A DNA stretch of 61,742 nucleotides, filler included, from Sluysia triapertura (taxonomy: Eukaryota): assembly GCA_046118255.1 (NCBI GenBank). It is 4 parts of 4 records of this genome, joined end to end, with 100 filler letters (N's around TTAATTAATTAA, not from the genome) between each part and the next. Parts side by side here need not be neighbours in the genome. Positions count along the whole stretch, not along the records: positions 1 to 11,333 come from JBJNIA010185912.1; 3 more parts are not named here. One strand, 5' to 3'. Positions 271 to 36,370 of the stretch are shown piece by piece. Each line of letters begins with the position of its first letter. The first letter of the stretch is position 1. The notes below the pieces were generated by a model. It was not told the DNA's origin. It searched no databases and worked only from the letters and a program-made list of their open reading frames with translations. The position numbers were made by a program, and so were the translations under genes.

Positions 271-738
271 ATGTTATTATCATTATTTATTTCATCAACA
301 AGTACAACCAGGTACCTAAATTCAAAAATTAAATTTAATTAAAATTAAAAATGAAATAAATATTAATTTCGTTGTCTAAAGTGGTTACCACCAGCACCAA
401 CGATGACAGCCTATTTACATTTTCATCATGATGTCAACGTTGATGATGGTTGGTAGTCAGTCATCAACATTTTTACCATCTTTCACTCTTGTTAACACTC
501 CACCCAATCAGAAGCGCCATTGTCTAATTTTAAATAACTAATACGATTGGGTGGAGTTTAAAATAGAAATTACAAATTAAACCAGACAAAATACTGGCTA
601 GACAAACACAAAAATAAAGTTTCCGATTACTGTTTGAACGATCAAAAATTAAAGTTTTCAATCACTGGTTGAACGATCAAAAATAGCTAAAATAAAAACT
701 AATTGTCAAGGAACTTTAACTCTAATCCACTAGATGAA

Positions 739-1695
739 ATGTCGGATAGTGCAAGACGATTACAGCTTTCTAATTCAATTTTAGTAGATTTACGAAAATT
801 CGTTATTGATATGTTTAAGGAATATGTTTCGAACATGGAAAAAAGTATACACCTTTTTGATCAAGTAGTGGTAACATGTTACGTAAATAGTTCTCTAAAA
901 CATACCTTTCAATTATATTTTCCCTACGTGCACGAAAATCCATCATCGTTTAACCATGAAGTAAATTATACATCTGAAATTATAGTCCGTGTCTGCAATG
1001 AAAGTTATATTCATATATATATCTATCAATTAGATAAAATCATTTATATCTATGTTAAAATGATTAAGAAATTATATGGAATAAAAGAGAATTCCATCAA
1101 TGAACAAGACTTAGAATATTACAATTTATTTATAAATCATTCGGTAATATTACTTATTGCGTCGACGCAAGAACAACAAGATTCAAGTGATTATCAAGAT
1201 TATCGAGAAAATACTATTACGTTCTGGCACAAAATCAATGAGAATTTTAATTTAATTTTAAAGTCACATTTATCCGAAACCCAAGTGATGAGTATATCCA
1301 AGAACTATGACATGAGAAGATTGTCAACTTCGGTAACTGTATTAGATTTTCCTCCTATAATTAATATTTATTCTAATAATAATTCAAGTCTGTTATACTA
1401 CAATCAAGGATATAATCTTTCGATTAATTATAAAAACAATATGCTTGACAACATACTAAACCAGTTATGTTTTGCTTGTCCCACTAAGCAGAATTTTCAA
1501 GGAATCAAGTTTAATGCAGTTACACTTATATCGAATGTGTGTAAAGGTAATTTTATATTTAAATTGAACTTATATAATTATTTTGTGATCCTTAAATGTA
1601 CTAAAGCTTATAATTGTTTTTTTTGTATTAGGCTCAATAGTATTCAGAATGTTTTGAAACGTTGGGAAGCCATGAGGAATTTTCAATATAATTAA
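739..1695 (+). CDS. Unknown ~320 aa protein, cargo ORF of element copy A
   Basis: Uninterrupted 330-codon frame (703-1695, first ATG at 739) in very AT-rich DNA, downstream of CCAAT boxes. Possible terminal intron 1547-1631 (GT..AG). No domain recognised. Confidence 0.55.
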   Translation: MSDSARRLQLSNSILVDLRKFVIDMFKEYVSNMEKSIHLFDQVVVTCYVNSSLKHTFQLYFPYVHENPSSFNHEVNYTSEIIVRVCNESYIHIYIYQLDKIIYIYVKMIKKLYGIKENSINEQDLEYYNLFINHSVILLIASTQEQQDSSDYQDYRENTITFWHKINENFNLILKSHLSETQVMSISKNYDMRRLSTSVTVLDFPPIINIYSNNNSSLLYYNQGYNLSINYKNNMLDNILNQLCFACPTKQNFQGIKFNAVTLISNVCKGNFIFKLNLYNYFVILKCTKAYNCFFCIRLNSIQNVLKRWEAMRNFQYN

Positions 1696-1822
1696 TGTTT
1701 GGTTAAATATAGAGGATTCTGTTCATTATTTTTCATTTAAATTTAATTTTAATCTTAGTATGATAATTAAATTTTTATTTAATATGAATATTCAAAATCT
1801 AAAATCTCTAAACTATGCCAAC

Positions 1823-1855
1823 ACTAGACGTGAACTAGACGTGAACTAGACGTGA
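1823..1855 (+). repeat. Tandem 11-mer (ACTAGACGTGA)x3
   Basis: Three consecutive copies at the putative end of copy A. Confidence 0.9.
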
Positions 1856-2280
1856 TCTACCGTACTCTTAATGTAATGCCTTATTATAAAGCGAAGAAAA
1901 CTTTAATAACATTTATGAATAACACTCCAACTACAACATTTATCATATTAACTTGTAAAGTATTAAAATCGTTACACTATAATGAAAAAATCTTATCTTT
2001 TCCTGTACCAAGGTCTTTTGAACTATCAAATAATATATATCGTTATAACAAAATTTATTTAACGCCGTCAATGTTAATGCTTATACCTTATACATACTAT
2101 TGTTCTAACTTAATATTTTTAAGATCTCCAATTACGGCATCCTACATTAGCTCATGTTACATCAGCCTGATTCAAAATTTGTCAATAGTTTTGAACCCTT
2201 GTAAAAGTTTAAATAATTCTGACTATCAAACACCACGTTGTAAAGATGATTATCATCTTAAAACGCGTCCTATAAAAATA

Positions 2281-3600
2281 TTACCAACAATATCACTAAA
2301 AATATTGTTGGCAATGTTTAGTATAATTAAATCTAACTCGATAAAAGCATTCGATTGTAATTAACTGTTAGTCGGTAGGAAATTCTCGTTACTGGAAACA
2401 GAAGACTGCCCAGAATCAAGGCCGAGTAGAATCCAAGTTAATATAAAGAATGAAATTTGATAACGGCACTAGTTAGAGAATGTATGGAGAAACAATAAGT
2501 GGGAATTTTGTACTGTGAACATCACATCAACTCGTCAATAATAGAACAACCGCATGTATTAAAACCGTTTAAAATTCTACCGAATAACTGTATAAGTTTA
2601 GTAAAAGGGGTTAAATTAAGATTAAGAAATAATGAAAAATTATCTATAACATTAGAAGAGCCTAACGTACTAACGGATGGAACGTACGAACAGGGCTCGA
2701 CAGAATACGAAGGAAAATTTATCACAATGTAATTGCTGAAGAAACTTATGCAGTAAGTCTAAAATCATTCAATGAAAGCTTCTACATAGAAAAAGGTACA
2801 ATGATGTCTAGGTCGTTTTGCAGAATCGACCAAACAAGTTCCGACACTGGTGAATCAACTTTAATATATGAATTAGATAAGTTCCAGTGGCATTAATATT
2901 TTTAAAACAAATAAGATTTAATCTGGTATCCGGATTCGTTTACCAAAATAATGATGATTTACTGATAGAAGAAATAAATAAGAAGGAAGTAACCAGTAAA
3001 GAAGAAAGTGGATTGATTTTCATATCAAAATGATTTATAGTAAGATACGGAAAAGAAATTATAGAAACCAATTATCAAGGTATTTATTAAACTTGACAAT
3101 TTTACAGGCTAAAAAGGATTAGAACCAAGAAATATAAAATTAAATACTTATTTAAATAATAAAATAGATTTTACAATCATCTCGGATTAATGTCTTTGGA
3201 AAAAATCTATCAGTTGAGTAAAGAAATATTACGAACAAAATTGGCAGTGGCTATAAAAAATCCTGATTTAGTTGCTCCATTGTTATCATTATAAGAAGGT
3301 GTTTTCGGTAGACTAATGAGAAAGGTATTGTATATGTATAAATGTAAAAAAAAATAGAAGTACAGTTGAGACCAGCAACCGAATGTACAAACGAATTGCC
3401 CATATTATACGGGGAAATAGAAACTCATTTAGAACCAGTAACGAGAGTAATAATTCCAAGTGGTAAAATCAAACCAAAAACCATACATTGTTCAAACGTT
3501 ATGGTTTCAGAATATAGAATCGATGAAAATTTATGGATTTCACTGCCACATAGAACTCAGGTTAAAGTACCTGAAATCATAGGATTAACTCAGTTAGAAG
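2281..3600 (+). pseudogene. Chuvirus-like (class III/gB-type) envelope glycoprotein, N-terminal part, with stops and frameshifts
   Basis: Hydrophobic signal-like ISLKILLAMFSII, then AFDC..FSLLETEDC; ILYCEHHINSSII; LNTYLNNKIDF; LAVAIKNPDLVAPLL; YKCKKIEVQLRPATECTNELPI..LEPVTRVI..TIHC..YRIDENLW. Motif order matches chuviral/retrotransposon glycoproteins (GYDC..SLL..C; KC..VEV..R.T..CY.ELPV..P.TRIL..C..Y.I..W). Confidence 0.8.
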
Positions 3601-4858
3601 TGTTCGCTTTCTGGTTTGGAACAATTATGTAAGTTATAGAAAAGAAATGGGTTCGCCTGTGTAACGCGATTTATCTTAGAAGGACGCGTTCACAGGTTTT
3701 AATCAACGTAAAAGTTTAATAAGAAAGAGGGTTACTAATCTTCGTTAATTTCTTAAAAGGAAATTGAAACTATTCTTTACGCACTATTGATAAGGATTAC
3801 TTATGCTTTTTTAAATAAATTATTAATTCTTTCTACGTAATATAATTTTTTATATTGTTTAACTCGACTCTAGTAAATTCTCCGATTAATTTTAATAATT
3901 TATCGTTCTATACTACGATTTTTCCTTATCAAAAAACGTTTATAATTTCACGTAATTAATCGTTTTATATTACAATTTTTCCTTATCAAAAATGTTTATT
4001 AACAAATAAACACACTTAATTTATCGTATTATACTACTATTTTTCTTTTACAAAAGTCTTGATAAGTCACAAATGTTTATTAATAAATGAATACACGAAA
4101 TATAGTATTTACAATATAATAATAAAGAAAAGAAAAATCAATTATAATAAATAAATAATTTCAATAAGAATTTTAATGCTGAGTTTGACCCACCATTAAT
4201 TCTTGGGTTGTAAAGTTAGTTGATTTTGAGTAGTATTTTAAGGCAATGGATTTATGCCAAACACTTATTATGAATAAGCTTACTTATAATTTGTAAAAAT
4301 CGCCGATAGATAAATGATCCGAAAATTATATCTTCTTGATTTCCAAAAATGAATTTATATTTGAGGAAGCTTTGAACGGTTTTTCTCAAAACTAAATACA
4401 TATAACGATCCGACTCGTAATTTCCAAAATTATATATTTTTAATAAATTCTCCAACTAGTTTGCGGGGCTCGTTTCAAAGATTTTCATTATAAGTCTAAT
4501 TATTATATCTTAATTATTGTGCATTACAATTTACTTGACAATTCCTTTTATACTTGTTCTGTAAGTAAACTTATTCAAATGAAAATAATGATTTTTGACC
4601 AATAATTGAAACCAGATGATTAATTTTCAAAGTTTATTTTCTAAAGGTCTAGTTTTAATTTTATAAATATTTACGTTATAAAGGTTGTTAAAGTTTTAAC
4701 TTTTCAATTAATTACAAAATGATAAAGTTTTTAATTAATAAAACTTTTCAATATTTTATTTCAATTTTATTGCAATTAATAATACTTTTTTTAATATTTA
4801 ATAAAACTTTTTAATATGTACAAAAATTTTAATATTTACAGTTTGTATGGTATTTACA
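3601..4858. mobile_element. Solo-LTR-like insertion (1258 bp) interrupting the glycoprotein
   Basis: TGT...ACA termini; 4-bp TSD GAAG at 3597-3600 and 4859-4862; excision restores the frame QLE-GKIKFLATKD. Imperfect internal tandem repeats at ~3900-4100. Confidence 0.8.
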
Positions 4859-4862
4859 GAAG

Positions 4863-5345
4863 GAAAAATAAAATTCTTAGCTACAAAAGATATTCCGCAT
4901 TCTGGTATTTATACATACGAAGATGTACAGGGAGCATGGCAAGAAATACTATTCCCACTAAAAAGATCAAAAGTGCTAACAGATATAATAGATAAAGCAA
5001 CAGTTGAAAAAGACGGAAGAATAAATTTTGAATTATTACTGGGGCCAGACAATTTTAAGAAAATCGTTCAAAATCTGTGGTAGCTTTTAGTTTTAGGCCA
5101 ATCTTTCTCTGGATTAATCGGTACTTACATAATAATTAAGGTAATCGCACTAATTATATCTTAAATTTTCTCTTTTGTAGGAATTTACAAAATTTCAAGT
5201 TTTATATGGAAATTAATAATAGGTTTTTTCAATTTTTAGCAAAATATCTTTTACATGACCAAGCGAATTCACAAGTAAGTGCATTAGAAAAAAGAAAAGA
5301 GACGAACAGAAGACGAAAACGCAGTGTTACAAACAATACAGAATG
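4863..5345 (+). pseudogene. Chuvirus-like glycoprotein, C-terminal part with transmembrane region
   Basis: HSGIYTYEDVQGAWQEILFPLKRSKVLTDII matches the SGIYT..D....IMFP.ER..L..IA motif. Followed by hydrophobic GQSFSGLIGTYIIIKVIALIISL and a basic/acidic tail. Confidence 0.8.
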
Positions 5346-5479
5346 ACGAAAATGAAGAAATCTGAATTAAAAGAAAATCAAAAAAGAATACAAAAGGAAA
5401 GAATTTGTCCAATTGCTCCAACATCACCGATACCAAACGTAGTTTATATGATAATATGTGCAAATAACAATTACAATAA

Positions 5480-7067
5480 TTCAAAGAGACCGATGGAGAA
5501 TGTCAAAATAAACGGCAGAACAATCCTAGCTTCATTAATTAACGCAACTCAATTAACAGAAGAAGAACTTAAAAATCTTGCGGATAATTTCTCCCATTTA
5601 TCAGGAGTCACTGAAGATGCTATACATATAGTTGGTGTGATGAAATCTGTGTGCGAGATAGGACAAAATAAAATTGAAGCAAAATTAAGAGTAATGCAAA
5701 AATGCCCTGAAGACATGATACTAGGAATGGGTATATTATCTCAACTGAAAGGAGTTATACTGGATTTCGATAGACTTAAGTTGATGGATAATCATTCAAA
5801 CAGAGTTATTGACCGGTTCGAATTATAAATTATACAAATGACAATAAATGGTTATTTAGAAGTACAAAATTGGAAGAATTGTCAATTATAAAATACCAAC
5901 ACATATTAATATGATAACAGATACGACAAAAATAATATAATAAAATTACAACGTGGCATACAAGAAGAAATTCAAATTAATAATAAAAACTTAACAAAAA
6001 GACAAAAAGAACAGTTATACGAAATTATATATCGTTACCCCAGAGCAATTTTGAAAAATAAATACGATATTGGAGACTCCATAATAATAAAACATGAAAT
6101 ACCGTTGATAGAAGATAGAGTGATTTGAAGAAAACCACATAGAATCCCTATTTGTAATCAAAAGGAAATACAAGATCAGATAGATACCATGAATATCGAT
6201 TTTGAAGAAAAAGTTGAATATAGTATCCAAAGATGGTATCAAAGAGGTATTGAGAAAGTGAGTAAATTTCCACAACGTTAAAAAGATTAAGAGTTTTTTT
6301 GGGTTTATCCAACTATTGCAGAAGATTTGTCAAGAATTTTGCTGAGATTGCACAATCTCTCAGAAAACTAACAAAGAAGAACGTAAAATTTAAATAGTCT
6401 GACGAACAAACTAAGGCTTTAAAGAATTGAAGGAACATCTTACCTCGGCGCCAATATTAATCTTTCCTGATGTTGGTAAACCATTTATACTAACTACAGT
6501 TATACATCTCCATACCATCCGCAAACCGACGGATTATAGAGCGTTTTTAATCGAACTCTTATTAATATGATTCAGTCTTATGTGAAAGACTGGGATTTAT
6601 ATATTGCACCATGCCTTTTTGCTTATAGAAGTTCAGTACATCCATCAACTAACTTTACTCCATTTTATTTAATGTACGGTAGACATTCTAATGTGCCAGT
6701 AGATTTGGAATGGCTTCCACCAATTTCACAATATTTAGAAATCCTGAATATGTCACAATAATGCTAGAACAGTTACAGGATGCATGGAAACTTGCAGGTC
6801 TCCAAATCAAATATTCTCAAGAAATATATAAAGATACATATTATAAAACAGCCAAGGAACATACTTGGTGGTGAAATACTTAGAGATTATCCGTTATCAA
6901 AACCAGGTCAATCACCTAAACTACATAAACCTTTCAAAGGACCTTATTTGGTAACTAAAGTCACAGACACAAATGTATTTGTTAGAGATCCTAACAAAAT
7001 TAACTCTGAAACTTTTGTAGTACATGTCAATAATGTAAAATTGCAACAAAGGAAGAATAGAACTTGA
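5480..7067 (+). mobile_element. Ty3/Gypsy pol relic (PR-RT-RNaseH-IN) with internal deletions
   Basis: PR: VKINGRTILA..DMILGMGIL (catalytic DTG missing). RT N-terminus KHEIPL..KPHRIP..EIQDQI. Connection region SFLGLSNYCRRFVKNFAEIA..LTSAPILIFPDVGKPFILTT. IN: SPYHPQTDG..FNRTLINMI..WD..LFAYRSSVH..TPFYLMYGR. GPY/F: KPFKGPYLV..VHVNNVK. Confidence 0.93.
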
Positions 7068-7199
7068 GGAATATAAAAGTATAGAAATCAAGGTTGAAGG
7101 TTAAGCCAAAACATAAAGACATGGATAAACCACCTTCAATTCATTCATTAAGACATAAACAGATAGTATTCATGATGCAACCTCACAGAGTTGACTTAG

Positions 7200-7510
7200 C
7201 ACACATAAAACAAAACGTACGTTAGAGCAATTGTAGATACCAGTGCTACTACATCGAAATTTTCTGACCACTTGGGAATTAGTATTCATAAACAGACCTA
7301 GGGCAGTAACATATAGTGTTAACCAAATCCCAATTAATATTAATGGAATACTGCTATGATATATAGATATATTAGGACAATGTGCACAAGTTTCAGTGAA
7401 TGTTTGGGACAATAGCCCATACGAACTAATATTGGGTTTAGATGTTATTAATAATTTAGAAGACATTGTTATTCCTAGCAAGTATGGTTTTATAAAACTT
7501 CCACCAGGAT
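7200..7510 (+). pseudogene. Second retropepsin (aspartic protease) domain, downstream of integrase
   Basis: VRAIVDTSATTS (from 7221; DT[G>S] motif) and YELILGLDVI (~7420-7450), with a frameshift and a stop between them. Confidence 0.7.
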
Positions 7511-7757
7511 CAAATATAATTATACTGCAACTAATTGTTCCACAGGTTGGTGATTAAATAACTTTATATCAAACGCCAATTTCTAATCCAACATTACAAG
7601 TCTAGAAATTGCCATTACCTAACATAGTTGCCTCCACGCTTCACTTTTCAGATATATCATGGAAGTCACCAACAAATTCAGTGGTTACGTCAGAAGAAAA
7701 TTCAGACTTATCTGGAACTGGCTCCGAATTTCAAGACACAGTAATGATTATGACTGT

Positions 7758-10132
7758 TGTGAGGTGTCAAAGATTATTATGGTTTTTAAGTTATAATCGT
7801 TTTTAAAATTTAAAATTAATTTATAATTATTTTTATGAATTATAAAAACAAGTTTTATTAAAATCTTTTGACTCGAAATTTTTAATTTTAAATTAATTGT
7901 ATATTTTCTCTAGTAAAAGATTGAAAATAACAACATAAAACTTTATTTATGAAAAATTTTAATTTTGATACTCCACTCCCATGTATGATTCTTTTTCTTG
8001 TCGTTTCACTCTCTATAAAAATGATACTAAAAATAATAGATAACACTAAAGATATCAAAGTTAAAACTATTTACCTTGATGTTGTAGTCCATTAGAATAT
8101 TGCTAGACGAAGTGGTAGAGACAACTGTAATACTCTTTAGTAATTCTGTAATTGTTTCCGAGTGTCTATTGTAAGTTGCTTCATCTTCTTTGTTGATCGT
8201 CAATTCATGAACAGAATGAGCGTAGTGACAGAACATTCCATATCTTAAGCAAACACCTTTGTTGTCGGTAGAAACTGGGCACAATGTAGCTATACGAGAA
8301 ATTTTTTTATTATTGAGCATGTAACACTCATGCTCATTATCTTTAAGTCTAGAGTCATCACGTTTATAATCATTAAGTGAACAAAGATCATCATTACTAT
8401 TGTTATCATAAACCTTAGATTTATTTTTATTACGTTTATAAATATTATTATTATCAAGAAAATTAAATACAATTAATTTATAATCATAAAATTTGTGAAT
8501 ACATATTATTTTTATAAAAATTAAAAAAATCAACTTTGTACTGTTTAAGTTTATGGGTATTACGTTCGTAGTAGTAAAAGGAATCATGTTTTTTTTGTTG
8601 TTAACTTGATCATCAACATCATCTCGAACACTGTTATCTTTGTTATCATTAGGGTTTTCATTGTTAGCTTCATAATATTCGACTTCGACATTATTGACTT
8701 TGTCACTGTCATCTTCAAGATTGTTATTTTGGAAATCGTCGTCTCTACTATTACTAATTGCGTTATGCCGATCTTCAAAATTATATACTCGAAAGTTTTC
8801 GAAGTTATCATCGTTAATTTTTTTCTGATCATCTTTACAATTAAAACTAGAACATTATCATCTTTAGTGTTATCAATCAAGTTATATTTATCTTGATAAT
8901 TGCATATTATATAGTTATTATATTTAACATCATCAACTTTATTCTGATAATCTTGAGCATTTATAACTGGAACATTATCATCTTTACTGTTGTAAATTAC
9001 TTTATGTTTATCTTCATATGATTACAGTTATGATTACAGTTATCACTGTTGATTTAATGATTGTGCTTAGAATAGTCAATTTTCACAGAGAGCATAATTT
9101 ATTGAAAACTATAGTTAGCAAAAATTTTTAATTGCGACTGAAAATTTAAAATTGACAAAAAATTTTTAGTTAAGTGATCATGATTGGTCATCATTATAAA
9201 ATCACAAGAATTCGATGAAAAAACCAACCTGATTGGCCGTCCAACCAAAAAACATATAAAAATAGTGATCAGAATAAATCTGATTGGACGATCAATAATA
9301 GAGATCAAGAGTTGTATGATTTGTGTGCTAACCACTGTGAGTAAAACATATTACTTGATAATTGATGAGTGAACCACTATCAGTGGTGACATTGACTGTC
9401 ATTGTAAATCAATGTAGTCACCACTGGTTGTGGTAGTTACGACATAATTTGCTATTTTAATAAAAAATGTTATTATTATTATCCAAAAATCACATAAAAT
9501 CTTTATTTCTAGAATTTCACACTACCTTTCTTTTATATCTTTATTTTCTCGACATATTTAAATCTATTTAAGGAGAATAGCTATATTTGAAAAATTGTAA
9601 ATTCGTAATGTTAAATGTGGGAATATGTTGAGCGTGAATTTTAAATATACACTGATTCTATGAATGGACTGATGTTCCTAACTGAAAATGTTAATAGAAT
9701 GTAGAAAGTTAAGACTTGATTACTTTGGAATAGTGTGTATGTTGAAATGAGTGATTTCGAGAATGAAAAGAAGATGAATTATAGTGTAGGTTTAGTCTGT
9801 TTGCAAGAATGGTTATAAAATGTTGAAAGATAAAATATTTTGGATGAATTTTTTAATGTGATTTAATGCTTTTGAATGCAGCTGTGGTTTGAATGTTGTG
9901 AGATTGTGGGTTTAATTGATTTTAACGGATGAAGATGTTTTTAATGGATGTAAAAGAGATAAATATTGGAGTGTTAAAATGTTTAAGAGTTTTATGTACA
10001 ATATGTTGATCTAGTTTATTGTTGTTTTATGTTGATTTTGGGTGTATAATTTGTAGATTTTGAGAATAAATATTAAGTTAACAAAAGTTTATGTAATTTT
10101 TATAAACTCGTTAGGAAAATAGGTTGGCCACA
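7758..10132 (-). mobile_element. Cargo-bearing solo-LTR-like element, copy B (2375 bp)
   Basis: Termini TGTG...CACA; flanks ACTGT (7753-7757) / ACTAT (10133-10137) = 5-bp TSD with one mismatch. CA-rich 5' region; GATTGG-N4-CCAATC-like palindromes at 9231 and 9282. Confidence 0.7.
8027..9080 (-). pseudogene. N/D-rich protein with Unkempt-type CCCH zinc fingers (cargo of copy B), frameshifted
   Basis: CPVSTDNKGVCLRYGMFCHYAH = C-x9-C-x6-C-x3-H with TD..G and G..C..AH, as in Unkempt ZnF3. Upstream ERNTHKLKQYKV resembles the lead-in to Unkempt ZnF1. Confidence 0.7.
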
Positions 10133-10137
10133 ACTAT

Positions 10138-11330
10138 AAGAAAAAAGTAGCTTGTTGGTTATACTTATTGATTATAACTTTTTTGTCATTAATAGCTAAT
10201 ACTATAGCAAGTGAAACAGACGAGGAATATAAAAATATGAATATAGACAATGATCACCGATATCTATAACCAATAGTGGAAATTTGAATTTATTTTTAAG
10301 AAAATGATTTTACGGCACGAATTTGAAATTTATTATATTTACCTAAAGCCTTTGCTAGTGAGTAGACCACATTATACAGATAGTATTCCACATTGCCTAC
10401 ATTATGGTTACAGACCTATATTAATATCCTTTTCTCTTGACAATAAAAGAAATACAATGGATATAAGGAAACGTATTGAAAATATAAAACAATTTGAAAA
10501 CGAGAAAACAAATGAAGTATCTACCAAAATACCTAGTTATAATGTAACTTTTAAAACTAGTAAACAAATAAAAAATCGACAACAAAGGATAAATTAGAAC
10601 ATTCCTACAAACTCTTTATCATGTTATTGATAATACTATACTTATGTACCATACTCTATTTACTTCAAATTGGCAAAAAAAGTACGAGTTCCTACAAATA
10701 ATAAAAATTATATACCATTAATGTTAATTACAATGATTACAGTAATTCTGAACATTCTTTTAAATGAGAACATTTCGAGTTTTATAATATGGATAACGAG
10801 GTAAAAGTTAAAATATTAAGCAGCAATATTCGTACTAGATTTACCTTTCTGAAACCTGCTAGGCTTAACATTAGTTCATGGACTATATATGAAAATTATA
10901 TTAATGATGATTTAAAATATCCTATCACATTGTGTTCAGACTTATTACCTATTGAAGATAGACATATTATTGTGAAAATTCACGTCTCATCAAAATATTT
11001 ACACTTTGCATTAAAGGGAACAAGAAAACATTTAACAATATTGGAACGATCCGGCATTGGTAATATTAATCGTATCGGCAATATTGTTTGTAAATTGCTC
11101 TTGCTATAGTAGTACTAACTATTATTATGTTTGTCTCAAATAGGTTTCGATATCCATGTCTACCGCTTAATAATGATGACGAGGATCGATATACAATTCC
11201 GCATTTAAATAATTATGCTCCTGTAGGGAAATCACACAAAATTCATCACACTTCACCACATAAAAACATTTCACATGTACACAGATTATTAAACAAACTA
11301 CTAAACTCATTCAAAAAACAAACATAATCA
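10138..11330 (+). pseudogene. Degenerate accessory ORF region of the Gypsy relic (TM segment plus unknown domain)
   Basis: Continues the sequence interrupted by copy B: hydrophobic WLYLLIITFLSLIA followed by same-strand ORF fragments (10304, 10789, 11127). Confidence 0.35.
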
Positions 11331-11333
11331 TCG

Positions 11334-11433
11334 NNNNNNNNNNNNNNNNNNNNNNNNNNNNNNNNNNNNNNNNNNNNTTAATTAATTAANNNNNNNNNNN
11401 NNNNNNNNNNNNNNNNNNNNNNNNNNNNNNNNN
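11334..11433. other. Artificial contig spacer
   Basis: 44N + TTAATTAATTAA (stops in all six frames) + 44N. Confidence 0.97.
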
Positions 11434-14681: not shown

Positions 14682-15467
<786 letters not shown>

Positions 15468-16176
15468 GTTATATTTCAAAGTTAAATTTTATTCTAAGTG
15501 ATATTATTTGAGATTTCGCCTTAATTTACATTTGATTAGATCTTTAATTAAATAAATGAGATATATTCCACGATTTTGTAATATTTATATTTTTAGTAAA
15601 CATTTATAGCTTTCCTACGACTTTGGCTGTGATTTTTTTTTATTTGAAAATTGTTTGTGATCAAAATTAGTTTTTCAATTATTCAGCAGTTTGAACTTTG
15701 AAAATTTTATTCATGTAACATTTAACTGTCATTTGAATTATTCTGTAGCATATGCTTTTTTGTTTTGTATTATAAATTGTTAACTTTGGTAATGTTTTTT
15801 ATAGTTTTATAATCTAAAAATAATTTTTGTTTTGTACATACTAAAGAATTGATAATTCTAATTCATGTAAATAATACTACTCGGCTAAATAAACTGTTAA
15901 CATATTAAAAACCTTGCATGATGAAAGTAAACATACTACTTTGGTTTTTTTGAATAGGCGCTAATATTTAACAAAAATGCTATATACAGTTCGCTACGAT
16001 CGGACAATTGTAAACATCTGGTTCACAATTAATGTGTTTAAAATCCATTTCATTCCGAATTATGTTCCAAAGACTTCGGTTTTAGTTTACATTTTCATTT
16101 GTGTTTATAAATTTGGTTTTGGTTTCTTTTGCATAAATCATCGATGGTATTAGATTTATGAACTCTTACCAAAATA

Positions 16177-17562: not shown

Positions 17563-18984
17563 TAATTGATGATTTTGAAGGGTTTTTTATTTTTTATGGT
17601 TGAAAAATTATCAAAAACTTCACAAAACTAATTAACCAAGCATTAAAAGTTTCAATTACTGACGAACAATTTAACGAAATAGGCTTAATGCCTTTAAAAA
17701 TGAACGTGATTTTAAAGTCAAACCAACAAAACTTAAATAAGGTTTATTAACAAAACAGAAAAATTTTATGTCTATGATCATACTCGTTAGAATTTCTTTT
17801 AAAAACGATGAAAGTACATAAATCTGCTTGCTTGATGTTGATTTCACGAGATTAGATACGGAATTAAAATTGTTCAATACTAAATCAGCTAATTTAATAT
17901 TGTTGGTCGAACGACATTTTAAATATAGACACTCTTTCATTATGGAATTTCCTTTGAATATATTTGGAAAATTTATCCATACTACTTCATTGCAATGGAA
18001 TAATACAGAATCATTAACTGTAATATCAAAACTTAATTCTTCATAAAAACAATGATGGTTGCAATTACATGAATTTAAACAAAAACTAAAATTTAGGTTT
18101 TATAATTTTTAACTATGAATTATTATGTTGCCTGACTCTATGCAACAAAATGCTATAAATAGTACAACCAACAAAATCCTCTCTAAAATCTTTTTATTTT
18201 TAATGTCCGTATAATGATGTCATTGTTGATTGGGCATTCAATCCCAATAAGTAAAATTGCAATACAGAGATAGACTTGACTAGACGCCCAATCAATTGCT
18301 GTATTAACGTAAATAAGATTATAAGCGTGTATGCTTGTCACCATGCTGTTAAAATAATTGACGTAGAGAAATGACGACAAGCAAAATGACACCACACATC
18401 TGGAAACTCTCATCAATCCACACTTTATACAAAATGCGGCATTAATTTGATTAAATTACTGTCGATTGGTGACAGAATATAATGATTGAATTAATTAAGT
18501 GTTATTGATAAAAAAATGAATAATAATAATAATTAAAATGCATAATTCTTTAAAAATTCGTATTACATGATCTTTCTTTTAATTGTTCTTTCGTTTCTAA
18601 ACACATAAGTAAACAAATTTAACTGAAGTGAAGTTTGTTGGCCTAAAATACTAAAAACGATTAAGAAGTGTGAACTTAAAGTTTTTCCAAGTGTAACTAC
18701 TTGAGGGTGAATGAATTGAGAACTTGAAATGTTTTGGGTTAATTTTAAAATATATGTTTGATAATTTAAGGTGTAATTTGTGAGTTAAGAATATTTTAAA
18801 TGGGATTTGAAATATATATATTAATGTAAGTATTATTTTGATGTTGTACAGTTGTGAATTTAAAATGCTTTGAAGTATGAAAATGTTCTAATAGATATGA
18901 GTAGGTAAAATATAAAATGTTAATGCATGTGATATTGCGAATACAAAATTAATTTTAATTTTAAGCTAAAGGTTGACTACCACG
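17563..18984 (-). mobile_element. Cargo-bearing solo-LTR-like element, copy C (~1.4 kb)
   Basis: 18620-18984 is clearly homologous (reverse complement) to 40265-40540. Palindromes at 18228 and 18278. Candidate TSD TAATG at 17558-17562 / 18985-18989. Cargo ORF remnant ~18050-17670 with no recognised domain. Confidence 0.65.
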
Positions 18985-23772: not shown

Positions 23773-26700
23773 CCAACTTCGATTCATACCAATATCAGTG
23801 TGGTCAAAATCAGTACTAATTCCACCAGCAGTTAGGTTATCACCGTCAACAAAAGTGTCATGATCGTTTGAAAAGTATTCTAATTTCTTGTTCGAATTCG
23901 TAAAATTTATGTCATCATCTCCGTCATTTTCGTCATCATCATCACCATAATCAATATTAGTTTGCCTATAGTACAAACGGCATTTCCCGGTGGATAAATC
24001 AGAAGAAAATGGTTCATCTAAATGAAACAAAATATGTATATCTTTATAATTAAATCTAAAATACGCTAAACAATAACCATAAATCACTAAATTCATAGAT
24101 AGACCAAAAGTATTGTAAGCGAAGTATTGTTGAGACTTATATTGGCTTAGAATTTGTGGTTCAAAATTTTTATCTTGTTAGGTTATTAACAAGAACTTCT
24201 CTCATTTAGAAGTAAAGGAAATTTTACGTAAATCTGTTTGTTTTACGCATCATCAAATTTTTTCTGCAAATAGTTTAAGCAAAAAGTAAGATTTTTTTAT
24301 ATTCAATATTAAGATTCATATGTGGCCCAGTAAGAAACTAGACTAATGGTAACAAAATTACAAATAAATTGTTATTTTTACAGAAAAATTTCAAAAGCAA
24401 TTAAAGATTTTAAAATTGCTTATGCAAAATTTGATAAGATTATAGATATTCTGAAGTCAAGAAGTAAAAGGAAAAAATCAGACAAATCTAGTATGGTTGT
24501 AAGGTTATCAGACATCCTCTATAGGCTAACGCATAATTTAACACCTTTTGCGTGAGTGTAAGTTAAGTTTAGTATCAGATTTTAAACACTAGAGAACAAA
24601 TAAGTATAGATATATTTTTTGTTTAAAATTTAAAATTCATCAATATAAATAATTTAATTTTTCTAATTTATAATAAATGATCAAATATTTTATTATTTTT
24701 AACTAAATATGAAAGAAAGAAACCGTAATAAATTACGTAGTTCATTGAAATTCAAAATAACAATGAGTCTAAGATTAAAGCGTTTAATGAAGGTGATTTA
24801 AATACATTAGAAATGTCAAAGAGCTCCACTGATTCCATTTCAAATAGACTTAGCAAAAATAACTTTGGAAAAGGTTATGTTGATTTTTATGAACATCATT
24901 AATTCATCACTGTAACATCTAAAATAAGTTTCCACAGAAAAACACTCGTTATATTACTTTTAAATAATCTTCAAAATAAAAAAACTATCGTTTGACGAAA
25001 ACAGTTACCTTTAGAATTAATTACAGTTTAAATGGTTTTAATGTCACGTATTATTAAATAATATAGCCAAAATTTTTTAAAATGAGTTATAATATTTGGT
25101 GATTTCAAAAAGTAATGAATTTTTAATACTATATCAGTCAATTAAGACTAATTTATTCGTCGATTACTTCAAAAACATCATCAGATGACAGTTCTTTGGA
25201 TTGGTGAATAAAAAACATTAAAATATTAATTTTCAAAATAAATAAAATTAATAATAAAACATTAAATAATTTTAATATTACAATTTTAAATTTGTTTATT
25301 TACATCAAAAACAATTTCAATTTTGCAATATTTATTGGTTGGAAAATTCTATAGACGGAATTTTCTAGCAAATCAACATAACTATTCTAGTAAATCAGCA
25401 TAATTATTACGAGAGAAAATTAATTCTTCAATTCAAAAGAAGAGAAGATCAATGCAGTAGTAAGTTTGTTTCTTATAGGTTTGATTCTTACGATAAACTA
25501 AGAATTAAATTTTCCTACTTAAAATCTTTTATTGCATATCGCTAGACCTTAATAAGACTAGCTTAATTTAACATTAAAAATTGTTTTTAATATTAGAAGC
25601 GTAATCTTTCTAAATATTAAATTAAAATATTACAATTATAAGTTTTGTTTACATTTCGTGTTATAATTTTCTGTTTCAATTTTGTGCTGTTAACAAAAAT
25701 TAACTTGTTGATCTCACTGTTGTTAACAAACTATTGAATTACTTTGCTAGACCTTAAGAAGTCTAGCTTAACATTTAAAATCCTAAAAATATTTTTTGAT
25801 TTGCACGCTAGACCATAACCGCCTAGCTCAAACTATTTTTTAGAAAACTAGACCATAATTAGACTAGTTTAATTGACTGTTATATTAGAAATATTTGCTG
25901 TTTAGAGCTCATTTCTGCGTGACAATTGCTTGAGGCATAAAGGCAAATTTAAATTAAACTATAGTGATTCAAACTTTAGACAAAACCTAATAGGACGCCT
26001 TTAAGCCGTGCTTAAGTAAACTTAACTTCCAGAATTATTTTGCAAGTATAGATTTTAAACTTTCTTAGCATAAATTCTTGCATACAATATATCAACAAAA
26101 CATATATTAAAAATCTTAATCCTCAGGCTACTATCAAAGCTTACTAGAAAGAAATTTACGATATTGGAAAACCAGAAGATATCAAATTAAATAACCTCAC
26201 ATTAAGATGTTGCTTAATGGAATGATGTTCATTTTTTTAACTAGGTGTTTCTAATTCAAAAATATATTCAAAATTGAGTAATTTAGCTATATTGAAGGAC
26301 ATACTAGAATGATCCTAGTATGTATAAAATTAATAGTTCCGATAAATTGACGAACATATGATTTACATCGATCACTAACTCTTCATCTTCATGATTCCCA
26401 AAGTGGTCTATATCGACCCCAGTGGTCGATGAAAACCTGCAAGTGGTATCCGTAGGCGAAAAAATTGGGGGTCATTGACAAGAAATTTCAAAAATTGCAA
26501 AAGCAGTATAATTGATATAATTTTGATATTAAAAAAAATTACAAAAATATAATATTGATATAATTAATATCGTCGGTCTAAAGCTGAAACACTTATACTT
26601 ATTTATTTGTCCTGTTCCTGTTGATACCAAAGGCCCACTAAAGAGGAGCCAATACATACATCATTAGATATTGATTATAAATCTTGTTGCGAAATACATT

Positions 26701-29700
26701 ATGTAACATTTTGTTGCTGAAAGAAATTTTTCTTTTGTTGTTTTTGAGCATTTAGATTTTTAGTATGTACTTGCAATTTCTAAGACGTGCTACCTTTTGC
26801 CAATGTGTTAATCCATCATTCTTTGCCGTTTAACGATATAGATGCTATTACTGTCTTAGAACCATGAATTAAATGTTTTGTTAGTTTGCACAAATCTTGT
26901 AAATTCAAACGCGGTAATACAAAATTATACTCAGGTTTAAGATAAATGTATTTAGGATATAATAGAATTAATGTAACTTAAAGTTTAGAATGTATGAAAG
27001 GTACGAGATAAAAAGTAAGAATTGTAATGCTTGAGATTGTAAATGCTTTGTATTGAATGCTTATGAATTTTTTGTCTTTGTCATTGATAAAATTGTAATT
27101 GATAAAACGTACTTCAATCATCAAGCATATTTCAACTTTGGGTTATAACTTATATAAAGACGTACATGAGAGTTTAGTACCGCCGTCTTCAAGTATTCAA
27201 TTGTTGTGTCTCTAATGTTCAATAAGTGTTCAAAAAAATTGGATTCTAAGAAAAATTAAAATTTATGACACTTATGGATTTTGACCGAATACTTCATCTT
27301 AAGATTTTATTGTTCTCACAGTTAATAAGCCTAATTGTAAATAGTTATGTGAGTTTAAATGCGAAATTTTTACTTATCAAAACTTACTCTTAAAATTTTG
27401 CAATTCTTTATGCTTTGCTTGCATAAAGTCTGTAAATTTTAATTATTCATTGTACATAGAACAAGTTATTCATTACAAGTGTTAAACAAAAATGTATTTT
27501 ATTAGATTTTTGACTGACGGAAATAGCTACACCACACGTCTGGCTTTGTCATTTCAAATATGTTTGTGTTTTTTTCGTAATATTTTCCTATCTTTCCATT
27601 ATTCTATAATTAATTTTACTTAAGCAGTTATATTTATGTACTCATTTATTTTTATTTTCAGTTAAGTATTTTATGTTCAATTTGTAGAAAATCCATCCAA
27701 AAGTATTTTGCCATTTCCTGCCTTTGTTCACACAGATTTCATTATAGGTGCTATATTTTGAACAGATCATTTGAACAATTGACAAAATTTTATATTGTAT
27801 TCACTAATAAACTAATACCATTAGTTTTTTATCATTTAGTTTCGTGCATTTAAAAGCACTAAAATACCGACTTAAATTGTTTTTAATATTTAACCAGGCA
27901 TTTTAAACCGAATGTAAAAATAACTAATAAAATTATCGTAATTATTTAAAGATTTGAAACTTAAATAGTATTTAATAAATACATAAAATTAACTTTCTAT
28001 TTTAAATTTATTGTAACCGGGACTTTGTATCTCCCTATTTATAAAAATATTAATTGAAATTTTACATTCGTATAATTAAGCAGCCCTTAACAAATTTACT
28101 GTGCATTTTCAAACCTCATTTCAAATTGAAGTGTAAAATCAAAGGGATTATAAAATTCACATTAAAATCGATAATGTGATTCTTTTTGAACTCTCATTTT
28201 AAATAGAGGCATAAAATTAACCTAATATAAATAGTGTTGAGAACTAATTTTGAGTTACATTTAGACAACACATTCACATACATAGCTAGCAACAGTGATG
28301 GTGACCTCCAATTTATTAATAAGCTGTTATTTCAAAAATCCTGCGGACAAGTTCAATATACTGATAAGTACTTTTTCAATTTAGCATTACTAAAAATGTG
28401 ATTAAAGAATGTAACAGTGCAATACATTTCCAAATTGATTTTAAATAAATCAATAATAATAATAATAATAATCTGTTTTAAATAATAACAGATCTAAAAC
28501 GAAATTTAATTAAATAAATTATTTATTTTTCTTTTCTGAGTGTGAATTTCTAGAATTTATAAAGTAGATTCAAATTTTGCTTACTTAAAATTATGTGACT
28601 ATAAATACTAAAAAAACTATATACAAGTCTAGTATTTTTTAAAATATATACTAAGTATTTTTAGGTGTTTTATTTTATTATTTTTCTAAGAATTTTAGAA
28701 ATTCACCGAAACTAACTAGGTTTTTCAAAGTCAGCTGGTAATAAAAATTCAGGTAATTCACTCGGCAATTGGAAGCCACGTTTAACGTGTGTTAATATAT
28801 GTACAGCCCGACAAAACTGAATTAGATTCACCGATGATTCTACATTTATGTCGACTAAATGCCTGAAAATATATTAAATAAATTAAAAATTAAAATTTTT
28901 AAAGTCTAAAAGTAACTTATTGACTTATTAAAAATTAAATAAATATTGTACAAAAATTAATTTTTTATTTATCTAATTGTAGAGTAACATCATAAAAACA
29001 CATAAATCATTTTTAGAAGTTACTTTTAAAATAAATTGCTCAATAAGTCAAGAACTTTAATAAATTCAAGAAATGGCAAAGAAATATTCAATATATATTC
29101 AAAAGATAATTAAAGGAAATAAGAAAAATGGAACTTACTACATTTAATTAGCCAAGAAAGAAGCTGAAGAATGACCAAGAACACCGTAACAGTGCAAAGA
29201 CCAGAATTAATAATAATCTATTATAAAGCTATAATATAGAATAAAATAAAGACAGATGAAACAGACGTAGCTACATACACTTTATAATATAAATATAACC
29301 ACATCTTGATCCGCAATGTATCACTATATGAATAATTGCCAAATTATGAATACCAATTATCTATAATATTAACTTTACAGGTAGGTGATTGAAATTTCTC
29401 TGGTTTATGTACCATGGTTTATTTCCAATTTAAGTACTTACACTAGTAAGTAAAAGAAAAATAAAATTTTTATTCCCATTTTTATTTTAATGAGTAATCA
29501 CATTTAGATAAAAATTAATTTTATTACTATTGACTATCATTAGTCTTCAAATGAGGAATTAAATGTGGCCATAATCATATTATAGAGTATAAATTTACTA
29601 TTACTATTACTATAAATTTACTATTGGCCATGTAATGCTTAAAATAATGCTTTATAATAAACTAAAATTCGCTATATGCAGAAATTAATTAAGAAATTAT

Positions 29701-32700
29701 TATGGAATAGAATTAGTAATGAGGCACACAAAAATAGAAAAAATGGTCTCCCATTTATATTAGTCAAGTATTTGTGTAGATATTATTTTGGACAATTGGA
29801 TTCTAGTTAGGCATTTGGATAATCTTTGACATTTAAATTTCAGTTAGACATTTGGATTTTACTCTCTAAATCGACGCAATGATAGTATTGATCAGTACAG
29901 TGAAGGGCTTAGAAGTACAATATCCTTTAAAATAAGTTATAATTTTTAAATTAAAAAAATTTTGCAAAATGTTATTTTTTAGTATTTTATTGTATTAGAA
30001 AATAATTGTTGTGGAGCTTAGGAATAAATTGTGGTTAAGTTTTTTTATTTGAGACTGAAATAAAATTTTATTCGCACTTTCATCTCTAATATCAGAGACC
30101 AGTCAAAATTACTGTTCAGATTAAGGTTTTAAAAGTTTGAGATCAGTCAAAGTATTGAGTCAGTTTAAGTAATAAAAGTTATCGATTATAAAGTTAAACG
30201 GAATATTTTTCGAGATTTAAAAACAAAAGATAAAGTTAATAATTGCTTAAAGTTTAGAATGTAAATTAAAGTCAACGTATAAATTTAAATTACACAATGA
30301 TTTTTCTGCATTATTCTAAAATTAGTTTGCCAAATTTTTCGCATTAAACTTGAATTACAAAATATGGTGTTGTTTCGCAATATGCAAATGAAAATCATTT
30401 AGTGCAATGTAGTTCAGCTGCAGAATAAGCTTGAATCCCAACTTGTTTTTTAATATATAAATGCTGGCTTATAACTTCAAAGAGGTATTATAGGAGATTA
30501 ATCTTTTATTTATCAATAAACAATAAAAAAAATTACAATGAAATTCAAATGTTAATCTGTATTATCTACGCTGAGTGTAATTATAATTTACACCTTACAA
30601 AGTAAATACACGATTAATTCGCAAAATTTCGATTCATATTTAAAGTATTATTTTTAATCTGATATTACGCAAATCACTTCAGTTTCTGAATCTATAGCTT
30701 TAAAAATATTTATGCTGTAATAAGCTTAAAAGCTGGATATCATCGAATGAATTCCAAACGGCGAAACGCGAAAATCTTCCATCATTTTGGTGACAACTTT
30801 TACAAAATCATGGAGACAACTCAAGTTCATTAAGTAAGCATATGTTGGATCAACTTTTATACACGGATGAACTAAACTTTTTGAAACACTTAGCTTTCCT
30901 TATAGTATACTGAATATAAAGATTATGATCTTTCAAGGTTCTAATTAAAACTATTTTATCCGATGTTGTTTCATTTTCTGTCAACGGAACACGTAGTAAA
31001 GATAGTTCTCCATGTTTGAAATTTTTTTAACAACTCTTAAAACTTCAAATTCGATTATATTCAATTTATCATTCGCCACATATACGAAATACATTTCTTT
31101 AATTAAAGAATTATTAAAATAATTGTTTAAAAAATCCCATTACATATCACTCAATGATGTGACAAATTGAAAATTTTCCAGTATATTTTCTTCACTATCA
31201 TTCCTAGCCAGAGAATCACTAATTTGAGATTTAAATTCTAACATTTGAAACTAATCTGCTGCCCAATATAGTCCTTGGCAATTTCCTTTGGAACATTGTT
31301 ATCATTTTCAAAACTGTAAATAGAATCTAAACAGATTCTAAGACCGTTTGACGTAAGAGGTTCATTTGACGTTATAATTATAATTAAAAATCGCATGAAA
31401 AACTTCTGATGAACAATAGAAATTAGACATCATGATTCAATTTCTATTTCACATATAATTCATTTAAAGTGGATACAACATAATTAAAATATTTAATTCT
31501 TTAATAACATGCAATTTCTAAATTTTTAAGTCATCAGAAAAATTTCAAATTTTAAATTCTACATCTTCTGCCAACAATTACTTATGTATAGTACTTTGAA
31601 AATAGCAACCATATTTTACAGGCCATAATCAAATAAAATTAAAAGGCCTTATTTTGCACAAAAACAAACCTTTCAGCACAAACAAATAACAAATACTCCA
31701 TAAAATCTGAAAACGAAATCTTTAATTTTCACATAAATAAAAAACTATTACAACAAATGCACATCGAATTAAAATTATGACATATGCACGATGAACGATG
31801 TAATTTTTAAAGTTGGCAAAAAGAATTTCATTTAAAAGTTAAATTCAAATTAAGGTCTATTAATATGAAGATGCTATTAAAAACAATTAATTTTAAAATA
31901 TAAGAGATTATGATTGATAAATAAATTCTTTTAACTTATTCTTCCACGAATGACTGAAACGCAGATCGATAGAAAAATTTATTTTAAAACGAAATGAACA
32001 TAACTTTCCACTTTCATAATTCTGCAATAGCTCAAGAAGCGATAGTGTAAAGATTATTTAGTAATATTAAAGTTTTGTCGTTAAATTATTGTTTGTTGAG
32101 ATTAAAGTTTACTTATAAAAGTATCTATTAAAATCTGTATAAAGTTATTATTAAAAAATTATATTATAGAAAAATATCATGCAAATTAAAAATTAAGAGA
32201 AAAATAATAACATATACTATAAAATGATAACAAATTATAGTGTATATGAAATCAAACTATAGTGTAAATGAAATAATATTAAAAAAGTAATTACACTATA
32301 TATTACTACAAACAAATTGAAAAAATGTCGTTATTATGGAAGAAATCAAGTATAAATAGACAAGTTTTATCAACACATTTTAAAAGGTATCGATTTAGTT
32401 CCAAGTATTTAATTTGGTTATTCATCGAAGATTTTCAATTGCTGTAGTTGCTATATCCCGAGTCAAGGTATTTGAATAATTGATATTTTAAAATTTAGAA
32501 TAAATTAATATTCTACCGTGAGTTTTCATCAGAATAAAATTTAAAATAATTTAATTGTTAAATTTAAACTTGATTTTAAAAGAAGTTCATATAACTACGT
32601 GTGGTACATTTTATCCTATATATTATTCGAATCATTTGTATTTATTACTTACATTTGATAAATAAACTTTAGTGAGTTTAGTTTATATTGTTTGATTTTA

Positions 32701-34786
32701 AGGAGAAGAGCTTGAATTTTAACGTTAATCAAACAACATTGCACTTCCATTTCTTACACCAGAGACAAGTGAACAGTAACCTCCATATGTTAAAACAAGT
32801 GTTAGAAAATAATATTGGTAAAAAGAGCTAAGTCAAAAGCCAAGTGATAAACATTATAAACTACACACCTATAAAATATAATCTAACAATAGCTAGCGTC
32901 TATATAATTGACTGAGACATCTCGGTAATTTGCCTTTGTAAATATTACATAAACTTTGTGCTTCGGATAATCCCAGTATCGATATAAAGTATTGAATGAT
33001 AGGAAAATTGTCTATTATTTTCGATTTTCAATGTGACTCATTCAATCTATTCACGTGAATTACGGAAAACAAATGTTAAACGACATGTCAAGCAATTATA
33101 AATATTAAGGAATGACCAGTCGAGTTCAGCTACACATTTATGTATAATAATAATAATTATTATTATTATAAAATTTTACATTTTGGGATTAATAAGACGC
33201 ACAAATAGGTTAAAAATGTCTTTTGGAACGGTTGTTTCACAGTAATCGCTAATGTTAACAAGGACTGTAGGAACAATATCTAGAATATGGTAAGGTGAAA
33301 ATGCACCGAATGTTTTGTGGTGGGTGAAAAATTTGGCATGGTGAAATAGGTGTTGTGTAATAGGAGTATAGTGTTTGATGCATGTTTCTGACGCAATAAA
33401 ATTGTCAGTAATGGTTTGAGCCACATATACTTTAAGATTATCATTTTGTAGCTTTATTTTTGATATTTATTTGTGTCTCTTCAATAAAATAATTAAATTT
33501 CAACTTCAAAAATTAGATTAAAAGTAATAACTTATAAATCAAGAAATTAATATTGAACTACTAACATTATTTCCTTAAAATCATTATCATTTATACGATA
33601 CATCATCAAAAAATTAATGGCATCCGATCCAGAAACTAAAGACCTTTTATCTAATTGCAATGTCTCATACCATTTAATATAATACTCTAACTGATCAGGA
33701 GTTGCTGTTGGTATCATATTCCTAGAGTTATCTAACCATTACGATAGATTTTATTTTTAAATAGAATTACCTAATTTTCCGGGACTCGCAGCCAATCCTT
33801 CTACGGGTTCCATTAACACATATCCTTTAGCATTATAGTCCACATCATCATTCATTTTATTGTAATCGCGTTCGAGATCGTCAGTCTCATCTGAATCACT
33901 ATCATGCGTAGCTGGATCACCTAAATCTTTCTTACAATCATCTTCATCGTAACTACTAATTTCAGAATTGGCATCAAATTGTTTTTCCAAAATATCTTTT
34001 ACACTTACAATTAATGTTGGATCCAACAAGCCTATAATTTTATGAAAAAAATTATTTTTACCTTTATTATCTTCATCAGAAATAAAATTGTCATCACAAT
34101 TCTCTGTCGCATTCCATGGAATTTCATTACGACTCATATCTGATTGAATAAAAAATGGATTGTGATCCAAAAATAACGATTCATTGTATGAATTAAGTTT
34201 ATTTTTGTATCGATTATTCTAAAAATATTAATATAAAAATTTTTTAACTAACCACAGCATTTTCATGTAGCTTTTTCAGATTAATTGTTCCTGATAATTC
34301 ATTGTTATGAAGGCGTTTCTGTGATTTCTGAGAGAACCTAAAAGCTAACTTATCTATTTTTGTAAAGGCTTACTCATTTGTCTCAATAATATTGATATCT
34401 GTTTCATTTATATCATAAGTAAGGAGAGGTATAGCATTTTCTCCTAACATAAATTAAATTAATAATGTACTTTACTTTGAGAATGAATTATTTCTTTTTC
34501 TAATTTACACCCAGCTTGAACCAATGCTATTATTTTTAATGCAACATAAAATTGGCTTCTTCCAAAATAATCTAATCTATTGGCACCGGAATATTCACTA
34601 ACCTAAAATATTAATTAATATTAAATAACAAATGACTTTTTCAATATCTTCTAATGAAAGACCAGATTTCAAGAAAAACTTTTTAGCATCTTTTATAGAT
34701 ATATAACCATTTTTATTTTTTTGAACTTGACCATAAATTTTCTCATAATTGAAAGTTTCATACTGGTTAATATTAATTTGCTTCAT
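23773..34786 (-). CDS. REPS1: RalBP1-associated Eps domain protein (REPS1/2-like); exons 34786-34637, 34602-34476, 34443-34374, 34337-34253, 34218-33771, 33731-33566, 28862-28717, 24017-23773; 3' end not located
   Basis: GANRLDYFGRSQFYVALKIIALVQAG matches the REPS N-terminal EH-like domain. The second EH domain (TPDQLEYYIKWY..SGSDAINF..|HLVDINVESSVNLIQFCRAVHIL..GFQLPSELPEFLLP) is split by a 4703-nt intron. All junctions are GT-AG and in phase. The last exon is joined on phase compatibility only; an in-frame stop at 28714-28712 is an alternative end. Confidence 0.85.
25541..25867 (+). repeat. Four short palindromic repeats GCTAGACC-N~9-CTAGC
   Basis: Copies at 25541, 25746, 25807 and 25848, with unequal spacers. 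Confidence 0.75.
26390..26480 (+). mobile_element. hAT (Charlie-like) terminal fragment
   Basis: CATGATTCCCAAAGTGGTCTATATCGACCCC..GGTCGA resembles CAGTG.TTCCCAAA hAT ends. Confidence 0.5.
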
Positions 34787-36072: not shown

Positions 36073-36172
36073 NNNNNNNNNNNNNNNNNNNNNNNNNNNN
36101 NNNNNNNNNNNNNNNNTTAATTAATTAANNNNNNNNNNNNNNNNNNNNNNNNNNNNNNNNNNNNNNNNNNNN
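36073..36172. other. Artificial contig spacer
   Basis: 44N-TTAATTAATTAA-44N. Confidence 0.97.
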
Positions 36173-36358
36173 GTTTATGTTTCAAAAATATACAACCAGT
36201 ACTACCAGAGAATGTCAAATTACTGGAAGATTATGAAATATTTAAGAAAGAGGCAAAGTTGTATCTGTTACAGAAATATTATAATGAATGATTTACCTTA
36301 AGCGCTTTTGAGTACTTTGCAGTGGATATGAGCGCAATATAAATTAGTATATTATTTT
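36173..36358 (+). mobile_element. L2/CR1-like LINE 3' end (copy 1 of 5)
   Basis: YNQ.LPENVKLLEDYEIFKK..LL.KYY-type terminus, 3'UTR ending GCGCAATATAAAT and an (ATT)-rich tail; recurs four more times in the window. Confidence 0.7.
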
Positions 36359-36370
36359 ATTAGGATTTAA

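Follow-up and report, generated by a model that had tools for sequence, protein, structure and literature searches.

A CCCH zinc finger that is best assigned to the Unkempt type lies in a broken, repeated segment of about 2.4 kb (copy B) in DNA of Sluysia triapertura (assembly GCA_046118255.1). The reading we favor, with a probability of roughly 0.57, is that the finger was captured from the host and is the cargo of a mobile cassette, which sits antisense in a decayed env-bearing Ty3/Gypsy element. The window, i.e., the whole stretch of 61,742 nucleotides that was analyzed, contains the finger, an open frame around it, a head-promoter-frame-tail layout that is repeated, and remnants of a Gypsy element and a fusion gene. 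Coordinates are given in Table 1.

Table 1. Positions of the features discussed, counted along the whole window.
Feature	Position	Strand	Remarks
Fusion glycoprotein gene, Monjiviricetes-type (gB-like), in pieces	2499-5083	+	PF24664, E 1.1e-11 and 7.4e-6
1.26-kb TG...CA insertion, solo-LTR-like	3601-4858	.	4-bp target duplication; low-depth plateau
Decayed Ty3/Gypsy pol	5259-7064	+	RT start and end, RNase-H-like piece, integrase end
AT-rich tail of copy B	7755-8026	-	four poly(A)-like hexamers at 7963, 7947, 7886, 7859
Finger-bearing stop-free frame, 275 codons	8027-8854	-	first in-frame ATG at 8584
Presumed gene, N/D-rich front	8855-9095	-	in two other frames, broken; ATG at 9095
Three CCAAT boxes, putative promoter	9118-9296	-	related to 40984-41174
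Head repeat, probably LTR-like	9653-10135	-	common to 40266-40681 and 18652-18983; ends at shared terminal motif
High-depth repeat right of the cassette	10136-11333	+	connected with the element on the left by two contigs
Third relative of the cassette	17674-18983	-	same head and promoter-like module, then a different 142-codon frame
Related cassette (probably copy A of the original prediction)	40262-42213	+	head, CCAAT cluster, broken frame, finger remnant
Dispersed repeat	36173-36356, 44092-44214, 47761-47931, 51067-51278, 54913-55010		five sites
N gaps	11334-11433, 36073-36172, 47661-47760		each 44 N, fixed 12-nt filler, 44 N

With a GC content of 19-32% over most of its length, the window is AT-rich and of animal origin: a Rab14-like gene at 14730-15468 (+) has, judged by eye, very short introns of approximately 33, 43, and 38 nt, and its protein is 91% identical to one protein and 73-75% identical to trematode Rab14. 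A tree of one of its exons (115 residues), for which 29 of the 120 relatives listed were used, groups it weakly with flatworms (89/82, unstarred). By eye, the stretch at 52238-53050 (-) resembles a piggyBac transposase, and those at 42557-42757 and 50118-50327 (-) resemble pieces of Tc1/mariner elements. The antisense remnant at 58107-58540 (+), with the order H..D..Q..C, was presumed by eye to be an Ulp1-type cysteine protease; Pfam lends that reading at 58.1-58.5 kb no support. The dispersed repeat of 100-190 nt has 75-88% identity among its sites, two of which adjoin N gaps, and a long ACT-type microsatellite at 60357-61121 keeps four frames of 189-254 codons open.

Copy B is laid out as a head repeat, a CCAAT cluster, the finger frame, and poly(A) signals. 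Its CCAAT cluster aligns with that of the related cassette about 31 kb away, copy A (score 63 vs. 37 for the best of 30 shuffles); these two are the only clusters of at least three boxes in the window, and each precedes one finger frame. The heads of the two copies also align above shuffles (99 vs. 85 for the best of 30), and the third head, at 18652-18983, matches that of copy A at 71% over 344 nt; its alignment with the copy B head is not significant (69 vs. 74 for the best shuffle). The promoter-like module of the third relative scores 64, a value reached by 0 of 100 shuffles, and the 142-codon frame behind it has no Pfam match. All three heads end at one motif, which was picked after inspection of the three, and past it their DNA is not related (58 and 64 of 100 shuffles reached at least the same score). 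A fourth copy of the motif is found at 58730. No pol match was found beside copy A or the third relative. The candidate ends of the copy B cassette, 7755 and 10135, are of the TG...CA type with a 6-bp inverted match, and contig depth steps near 7755. The flanks show no clean target duplication (three of five letters are alike), neither direct nor inverted long terminal repeats were found at the ends, and TRF reports short arrays only. A stretch at 381-498 is similar to the copy B spacer (52 vs. 34 for the best shuffle). Two open frames lie behind it, at 703-1695 and 1834-2364 (+), of 330 and 176 codons; the former is the longest in the window, their depth is 256-770, and neither has a Pfam match. 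They are possibly further cargo genes.

The finger of copy A survives as a broken remnant, with a frame break near 41780. A frameshift-aware finger scan (246,008 trials, with the break read as X) ranks 41780 (+) first with a score of 61, the next locus scoring 46, and Unkempt fingers 4-6 (5elk) are the sole PDB match of the remnant (E 0.062) among 177,635 sequences. Copies A and B are not significantly similar as single-frame proteins (13 of 200 shuffles), and their coding DNA gives no alignment above shuffles (66 vs. 78 for the best). A candidate for Unkempt finger 1 in copy A (41442-41621), suggested by its appearance, was dropped, as neither PDB nor Pfam matches it, and a finger look-alike at 26.6 kb (score 41-44), in which the later Cys/His are missing, is put down to chance.

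The element to the left of the cassette is recognizable, though heavily decayed. The fusion glycoprotein gene has many stops and frame breaks and is split by the solo-LTR-like insertion, inside which a short three-copy repeat lies at 3896-4056. The pol has two large internal deletions and a protease-like part seen by eye only; its Pfam matches are PF17919 (E 1.2e-4) and PF22938 (E 0.064). A profile made of nine pol frames, taken at loci akin to the integrase piece, matches 5943-6887 in the order RT, RNase H, integrase, which is the Gypsy order (best E 1.5e-27, with two large gaps). The finger spacing x9/x6/x3 occurs in none of 20 related integrase loci. No gag match was found in the remnant, and no pair of direct repeats (LTRs) around it; its right end meets the N gap at 11334. 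By eye, a second retropepsin-like remnant stands behind the integrase at 7237-7554 (+), with no Pfam match, and a second Gypsy pol fragment, to which the Ulp1-like remnant lies antisense, is present at 57454-57576 (-), 71% alike to 6362-6474. The repeat to the right of the cassette encodes hydrophobic, membrane-anchor-like segments, ends at the N gap, and has no Pfam or pol match; reading 10150-10420 within it as a piece of RNase H is unsupported by either comparison.

Repetition was gauged by aligning 11,178 contigs of the public run X1, which contains 0.56 of the words of the stretch and may be the window's own source, to positions 320-11320 at 80% likeness. At least 10 contigs align at position 8287, which is 6 nt away from the finger's first Cys, with a summed depth of 253; the long contig pieces (8 among the matches listed) have depths of 12-23. 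Summed depth, which is not a copy number, is 1535-2261 in the bins of the frame (8027-9127) and 1120-2852 throughout 7660-9861, vs. 4895 and 6299 to the left and 7675 and 12340 to the right. It is 10088-81099 in the pol bins, 25803-42682 in those of the fusion gene, and 109758, the highest of the aligned stretch, in the last bin of the right-hand repeat; the insertion at 3601-4858 likewise lies below its flanks (322-1165). Single contigs join 7599 to 10364 (side 43; the letters between are not known) and 6040 to 10290 (side 30), in both cases bypassing the finger, each flank joint being that of one contig, at a likeness at which joints can be false. A further contig joins 7994 to 9119, that is, the promoter and the tail without the frame. 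With due caution, the finger is repeated and, like the insertion, occupies a block whose depth is lower than that of its flanks. The original prediction had placed it inside a mobile element; depth and joints support this, but the cassette is enclosed neither by an LTR pair nor by a clean target duplication.

The same prediction treated the frame as a gene of the element; on this view it would be a resident antisense accessory gene of an env-Gypsy subfamily, with the head as the 3' LTR and intact copies selected for control of element or host RNA. The order of env, pol, antisense frame, and a CA-ending LTR-like repeat suits a Gypsy 3' region, the frame is long and open, and the contig that joins 7994 to 9119 looks as if cargo had been swapped in a fixed slot; host-like genes in an orchid AlkB-carrying Gypsy (PMC9289625) and in planarian Burro (PMC6431247) are precedents, as far as the available portions of these papers go. 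Against it, no 5' copy of the head was found ahead of env or pol, neither of the other cassettes adjoins a pol, high-depth DNA continues to the right of the head and is linked by two contigs to the left-hand element, and no intact copy was found. The depth of the cassette is approximately 5 to 50 times below that of the pol bins, and so most Gypsy relatives would lack it. We consider a resident gene rather unlikely; because the flanks of the two relatives are unrelated and lack pol, an independent cassette nested inside the element is at least as well supported as a Gypsy gene.

The core of the finger lies at 8281-8216 (-), with the spacing C-x9-C-x6-C-x3-H and all four ligands kept. A loose-pattern scan of the window in all six frames finds this CCCH-like pattern and no other, and its exact spacing appears in 0 of 100 shuffled windows; the peptide originally quoted for this spacing is located at 8281-8201 (-). 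PF25427 (zf-CCCH_UNK) is the sole Pfam family matched by the entire 275-aa frame, 8854-8027 (E 3e-7; 30.7 bits, slightly below the 31.1 cut-off), and a 50-aa piece with the finger exceeds that cut-off (E 2.1e-8, 34.4 bits) and matches no other family at E<=10. The top PDB match is finger 3 of Unkempt (5elh; E 0.0053, 19.9 bits), with 12 of 29 residues identical without gaps; the identities include T-D-x-K-G, G-x-x-C, and A-H, among them the residues singled out beforehand. Finger 3 spacing and the PF25427 match both place the finger with the Unkempt/UNK proteins, as predicted, with a near-tie from the TTP family. Homologue searches came back empty, and no Unkempt protein was retrieved: 0 of 125 candidates matched at E<=0.01, 0 of 13 at E<=10, and 0 among 1.84 billion representatives at E<=0.001, with 0 of 109 metagenome and 0 of 4 viral stretches matching as well. 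PDB matches to IGF1R (E 0.075-0.24) were taken as chance.

An origin from a TIS11/tristetraprolin (TTP)-type or generic CCCH protein, with the likeness to Unkempt finger 3 produced by two one-residue insertions, is the competing account of the finger itself. TIS11/TTP proteins have two tandem fingers of the form C-x8-C-x5-C-x3-H. The next PDB scores are indeed close, at 18.9 bits for TIS11d (1rgo), 18.5 for the cytoplasmic zinc-finger protein 6nzl, and 16.9 for TTP; the tail of the finger, Y-G-x-x-C-x-Y-A-H-x-x-H-E-L, is TTP-like in the PDB alignment, the ESM Atlas returns only generic zf-CCCH clusters (every score below 0.9), and fingers 1 and 2 are undetected. The TTP-family alignments need gaps, however, whereas that of Unkempt has none, and the finger is single, with x9/x6 spacing and no second finger after it; PF25427 exceeds its cut-off while no generic zf-CCCH model appears at E<=10, and the copy A remnant matches only Unkempt in the PDB. 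An origin of this kind is quite unlikely. Judged from the sequence, the best assignment is that the finger is real and Unkempt-type; this is not a closed assignment, because of the TTP-family near-tie and the generic Atlas clusters.

The frame around the finger is long for its surroundings: its 275 open codons compare with a mean of 83 and a maximum of 182 in 500 shuffles (none reaches 185), a contrast to be read with the caveat that an N/D-rich frame stays open more easily than shuffling allows for. It also exceeds the longest frame of the adjacent pol (189 codons). This length hints that the frame was under coding constraint at a later time or arrived later, and is the sole hint of past selection at copy B. 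The N+D content of the front is 42% in residues 1-90 and 35% in 9021-8856, and a 120-bp duplication (8771-8898 and 8890-9018) has 75% identity; the N/D-rich repeat predicted ahead of the finger is thus present in composition and duplication, yet spread across three frames rather than running as one. The two eroded earlier fingers of the same prediction were a resemblance by eye that the searches did not recover. In the region proposed for fingers 1-2 of the first cluster, four pieces that together cover all three frames have no Pfam match at E<=10, two pieces of the stretch before the finger have no Unkempt match in the PDB at E<=10, and the 100 residues preceding the finger hold three Cys and two His. 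Fingers 4-6, the second cluster, are absent, with no Cys in the 60 residues between the finger and the stop; Pfam finds no disordered effector region, coiled coil, or RING of Unkempt, and the frame stops 60 residues past the finger. A single-sequence AlphaFold2 model of the frame is uninformative (pLDDT 32.6). Copy B is likely a dead pseudogene.

An ordinary processed or duplicated host unk pseudogene, lying by chance amid transposon debris, would suit the broken front, the unproven element ends, the poly(A)-like signals after the frame, and the lack of a convincing intron-sized GT..AG in the tested stretch (one 30-nt candidate), and is very unlikely given the at least 10 distinct contigs beside the finger, the head and promoter shared with a related cassette 31 kb away in the window, the other frame carried by the third, and an N/D-rich front and a tail that match no Unkempt model.

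Under the favored reading, of a host-derived finger carried by a mobile cassette, a piece of a host Unkempt-family transcript would have been captured behind an LTR-like head and a CCAAT promoter, and the captured cassette would then have been amplified, with copy B decaying. The cassette was presumably transcribed from its own CCAAT cluster. The ancestral product may have had approximately 350 residues: a disordered front that was acidic and N/D-rich, and a module from the first finger cluster of Unkempt. For A/U-rich RNA, the first cluster of Unkempt, ZnF1-3, has an affinity about 5-fold below that of ZnF4-6 for UAG (2.4 vs. 0.4 uM), in the part of the source available (PMC12136788), and the captured protein would likewise bind A/U-rich RNA weakly. 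Repression by Unkempt needs the C-terminal disordered region and a coiled coil, which recruit CCR4-NOT and PABPC, according to the accessible text of PMC11009413. Because the product would have no fingers 4-6, no CCR4-NOT/PABPC-binding region, and no coiled coil, it would be unable to repress like Unkempt; at most it would coat or shield the element's A/U-rich RNA, or act as a decoy competing with host CCCH proteins. Co-option for RNA control or for countering silencing, as originally proposed, finds no evidence in copy B, with its broken front, one of six fingers, and neither the UAG-reading cluster nor the effector tail. A broader version is doubtful: that a family of env-retroelements shares an LTR-promoter cassette with exchangeable cargo, including a truncated first cluster of Unkempt that was selected as a tail-less RNA-binding decoy, shielding element RNA or competing with host CCCH repressors. 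Acquisition of regulatory domains from the host is rare among retroelements and gives a clue to the defenses that the host raises against them; an Unkempt-type cargo would tie to translational repression and mRNA control, not to chromatin. The value of the finding hinges on the existence of intact, selected copies, copy B alone being a fossil.

The available part of the main text of PMC13524379 mentions neither CCCH nor Unkempt, its supplements perhaps listing extra frames, and CCCH is absent from the accessible portions of PMC6431247 and PMC5408684. No case of Unkempt or CCCH cargo in a retroelement was found in the literature searched. CCCH frames reportedly occur in the Terminon retroelements of rotifers; the literature searched holds no report supporting this.

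Set against known systems, copy B shares with Unkempt/UNK proteins the spacing of finger 3, the 12 of 29 gap-free identities, and a PF25427 score above the cut-off; it differs in having one of six fingers, an N/D-rich front, a location in repeated mobile DNA, and no RING, coiled coil, or effector. The available text of PMC13524379 describes an env placed before pol (GAG-ENV-POL or ENV-GAG-POL) in Ty3/Gypsy elements of nematodes, bryozoans, flatworms, and mites. The element in the window resembles such elements with a gB-type env in having a PF24664 fusion gene upstream of a pol in the order RT, RNase H, integrase, whereas it is heavily deleted, with no detectable gag or LTR pair. In Burro, a giant Gypsy of planarians, the env lies before pol and is akin to mononegavirus fusion proteins, accessory frames encode regulatory domains like those of hosts, and apoptosis and ubiquitin domains have been captured, as described in the available part of PMC6431247; the likeness lies in the mononegavirus-type env before pol, the host-like domain in an extra frame, and a host that groups weakly with flatworms. 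Unlike Burro as so described, the element here shows no Pfam match to BIR, BCL2, MATH, or ankyrin in the frames scanned and no giant polyprotein, in a copy too decayed to exclude kinship, and its cargo is antisense with its own promoter-like cluster. Rotifer retroelements carry esterases and exonucleases (PMC5408684, in the portion available), and the AlkB domain of a Gypsy in Phalaenopsis orchids is intact and active in vitro (PMC9289625, likewise). The orchid element likewise places a host RNA-regulatory domain in an additional frame within a Gypsy context, whereas the finger here is a fragment in a broken copy, known from its sequence alone. Gypsy elements are already known to capture host domains; a finger of the Unkempt type would add a new sort of cargo.
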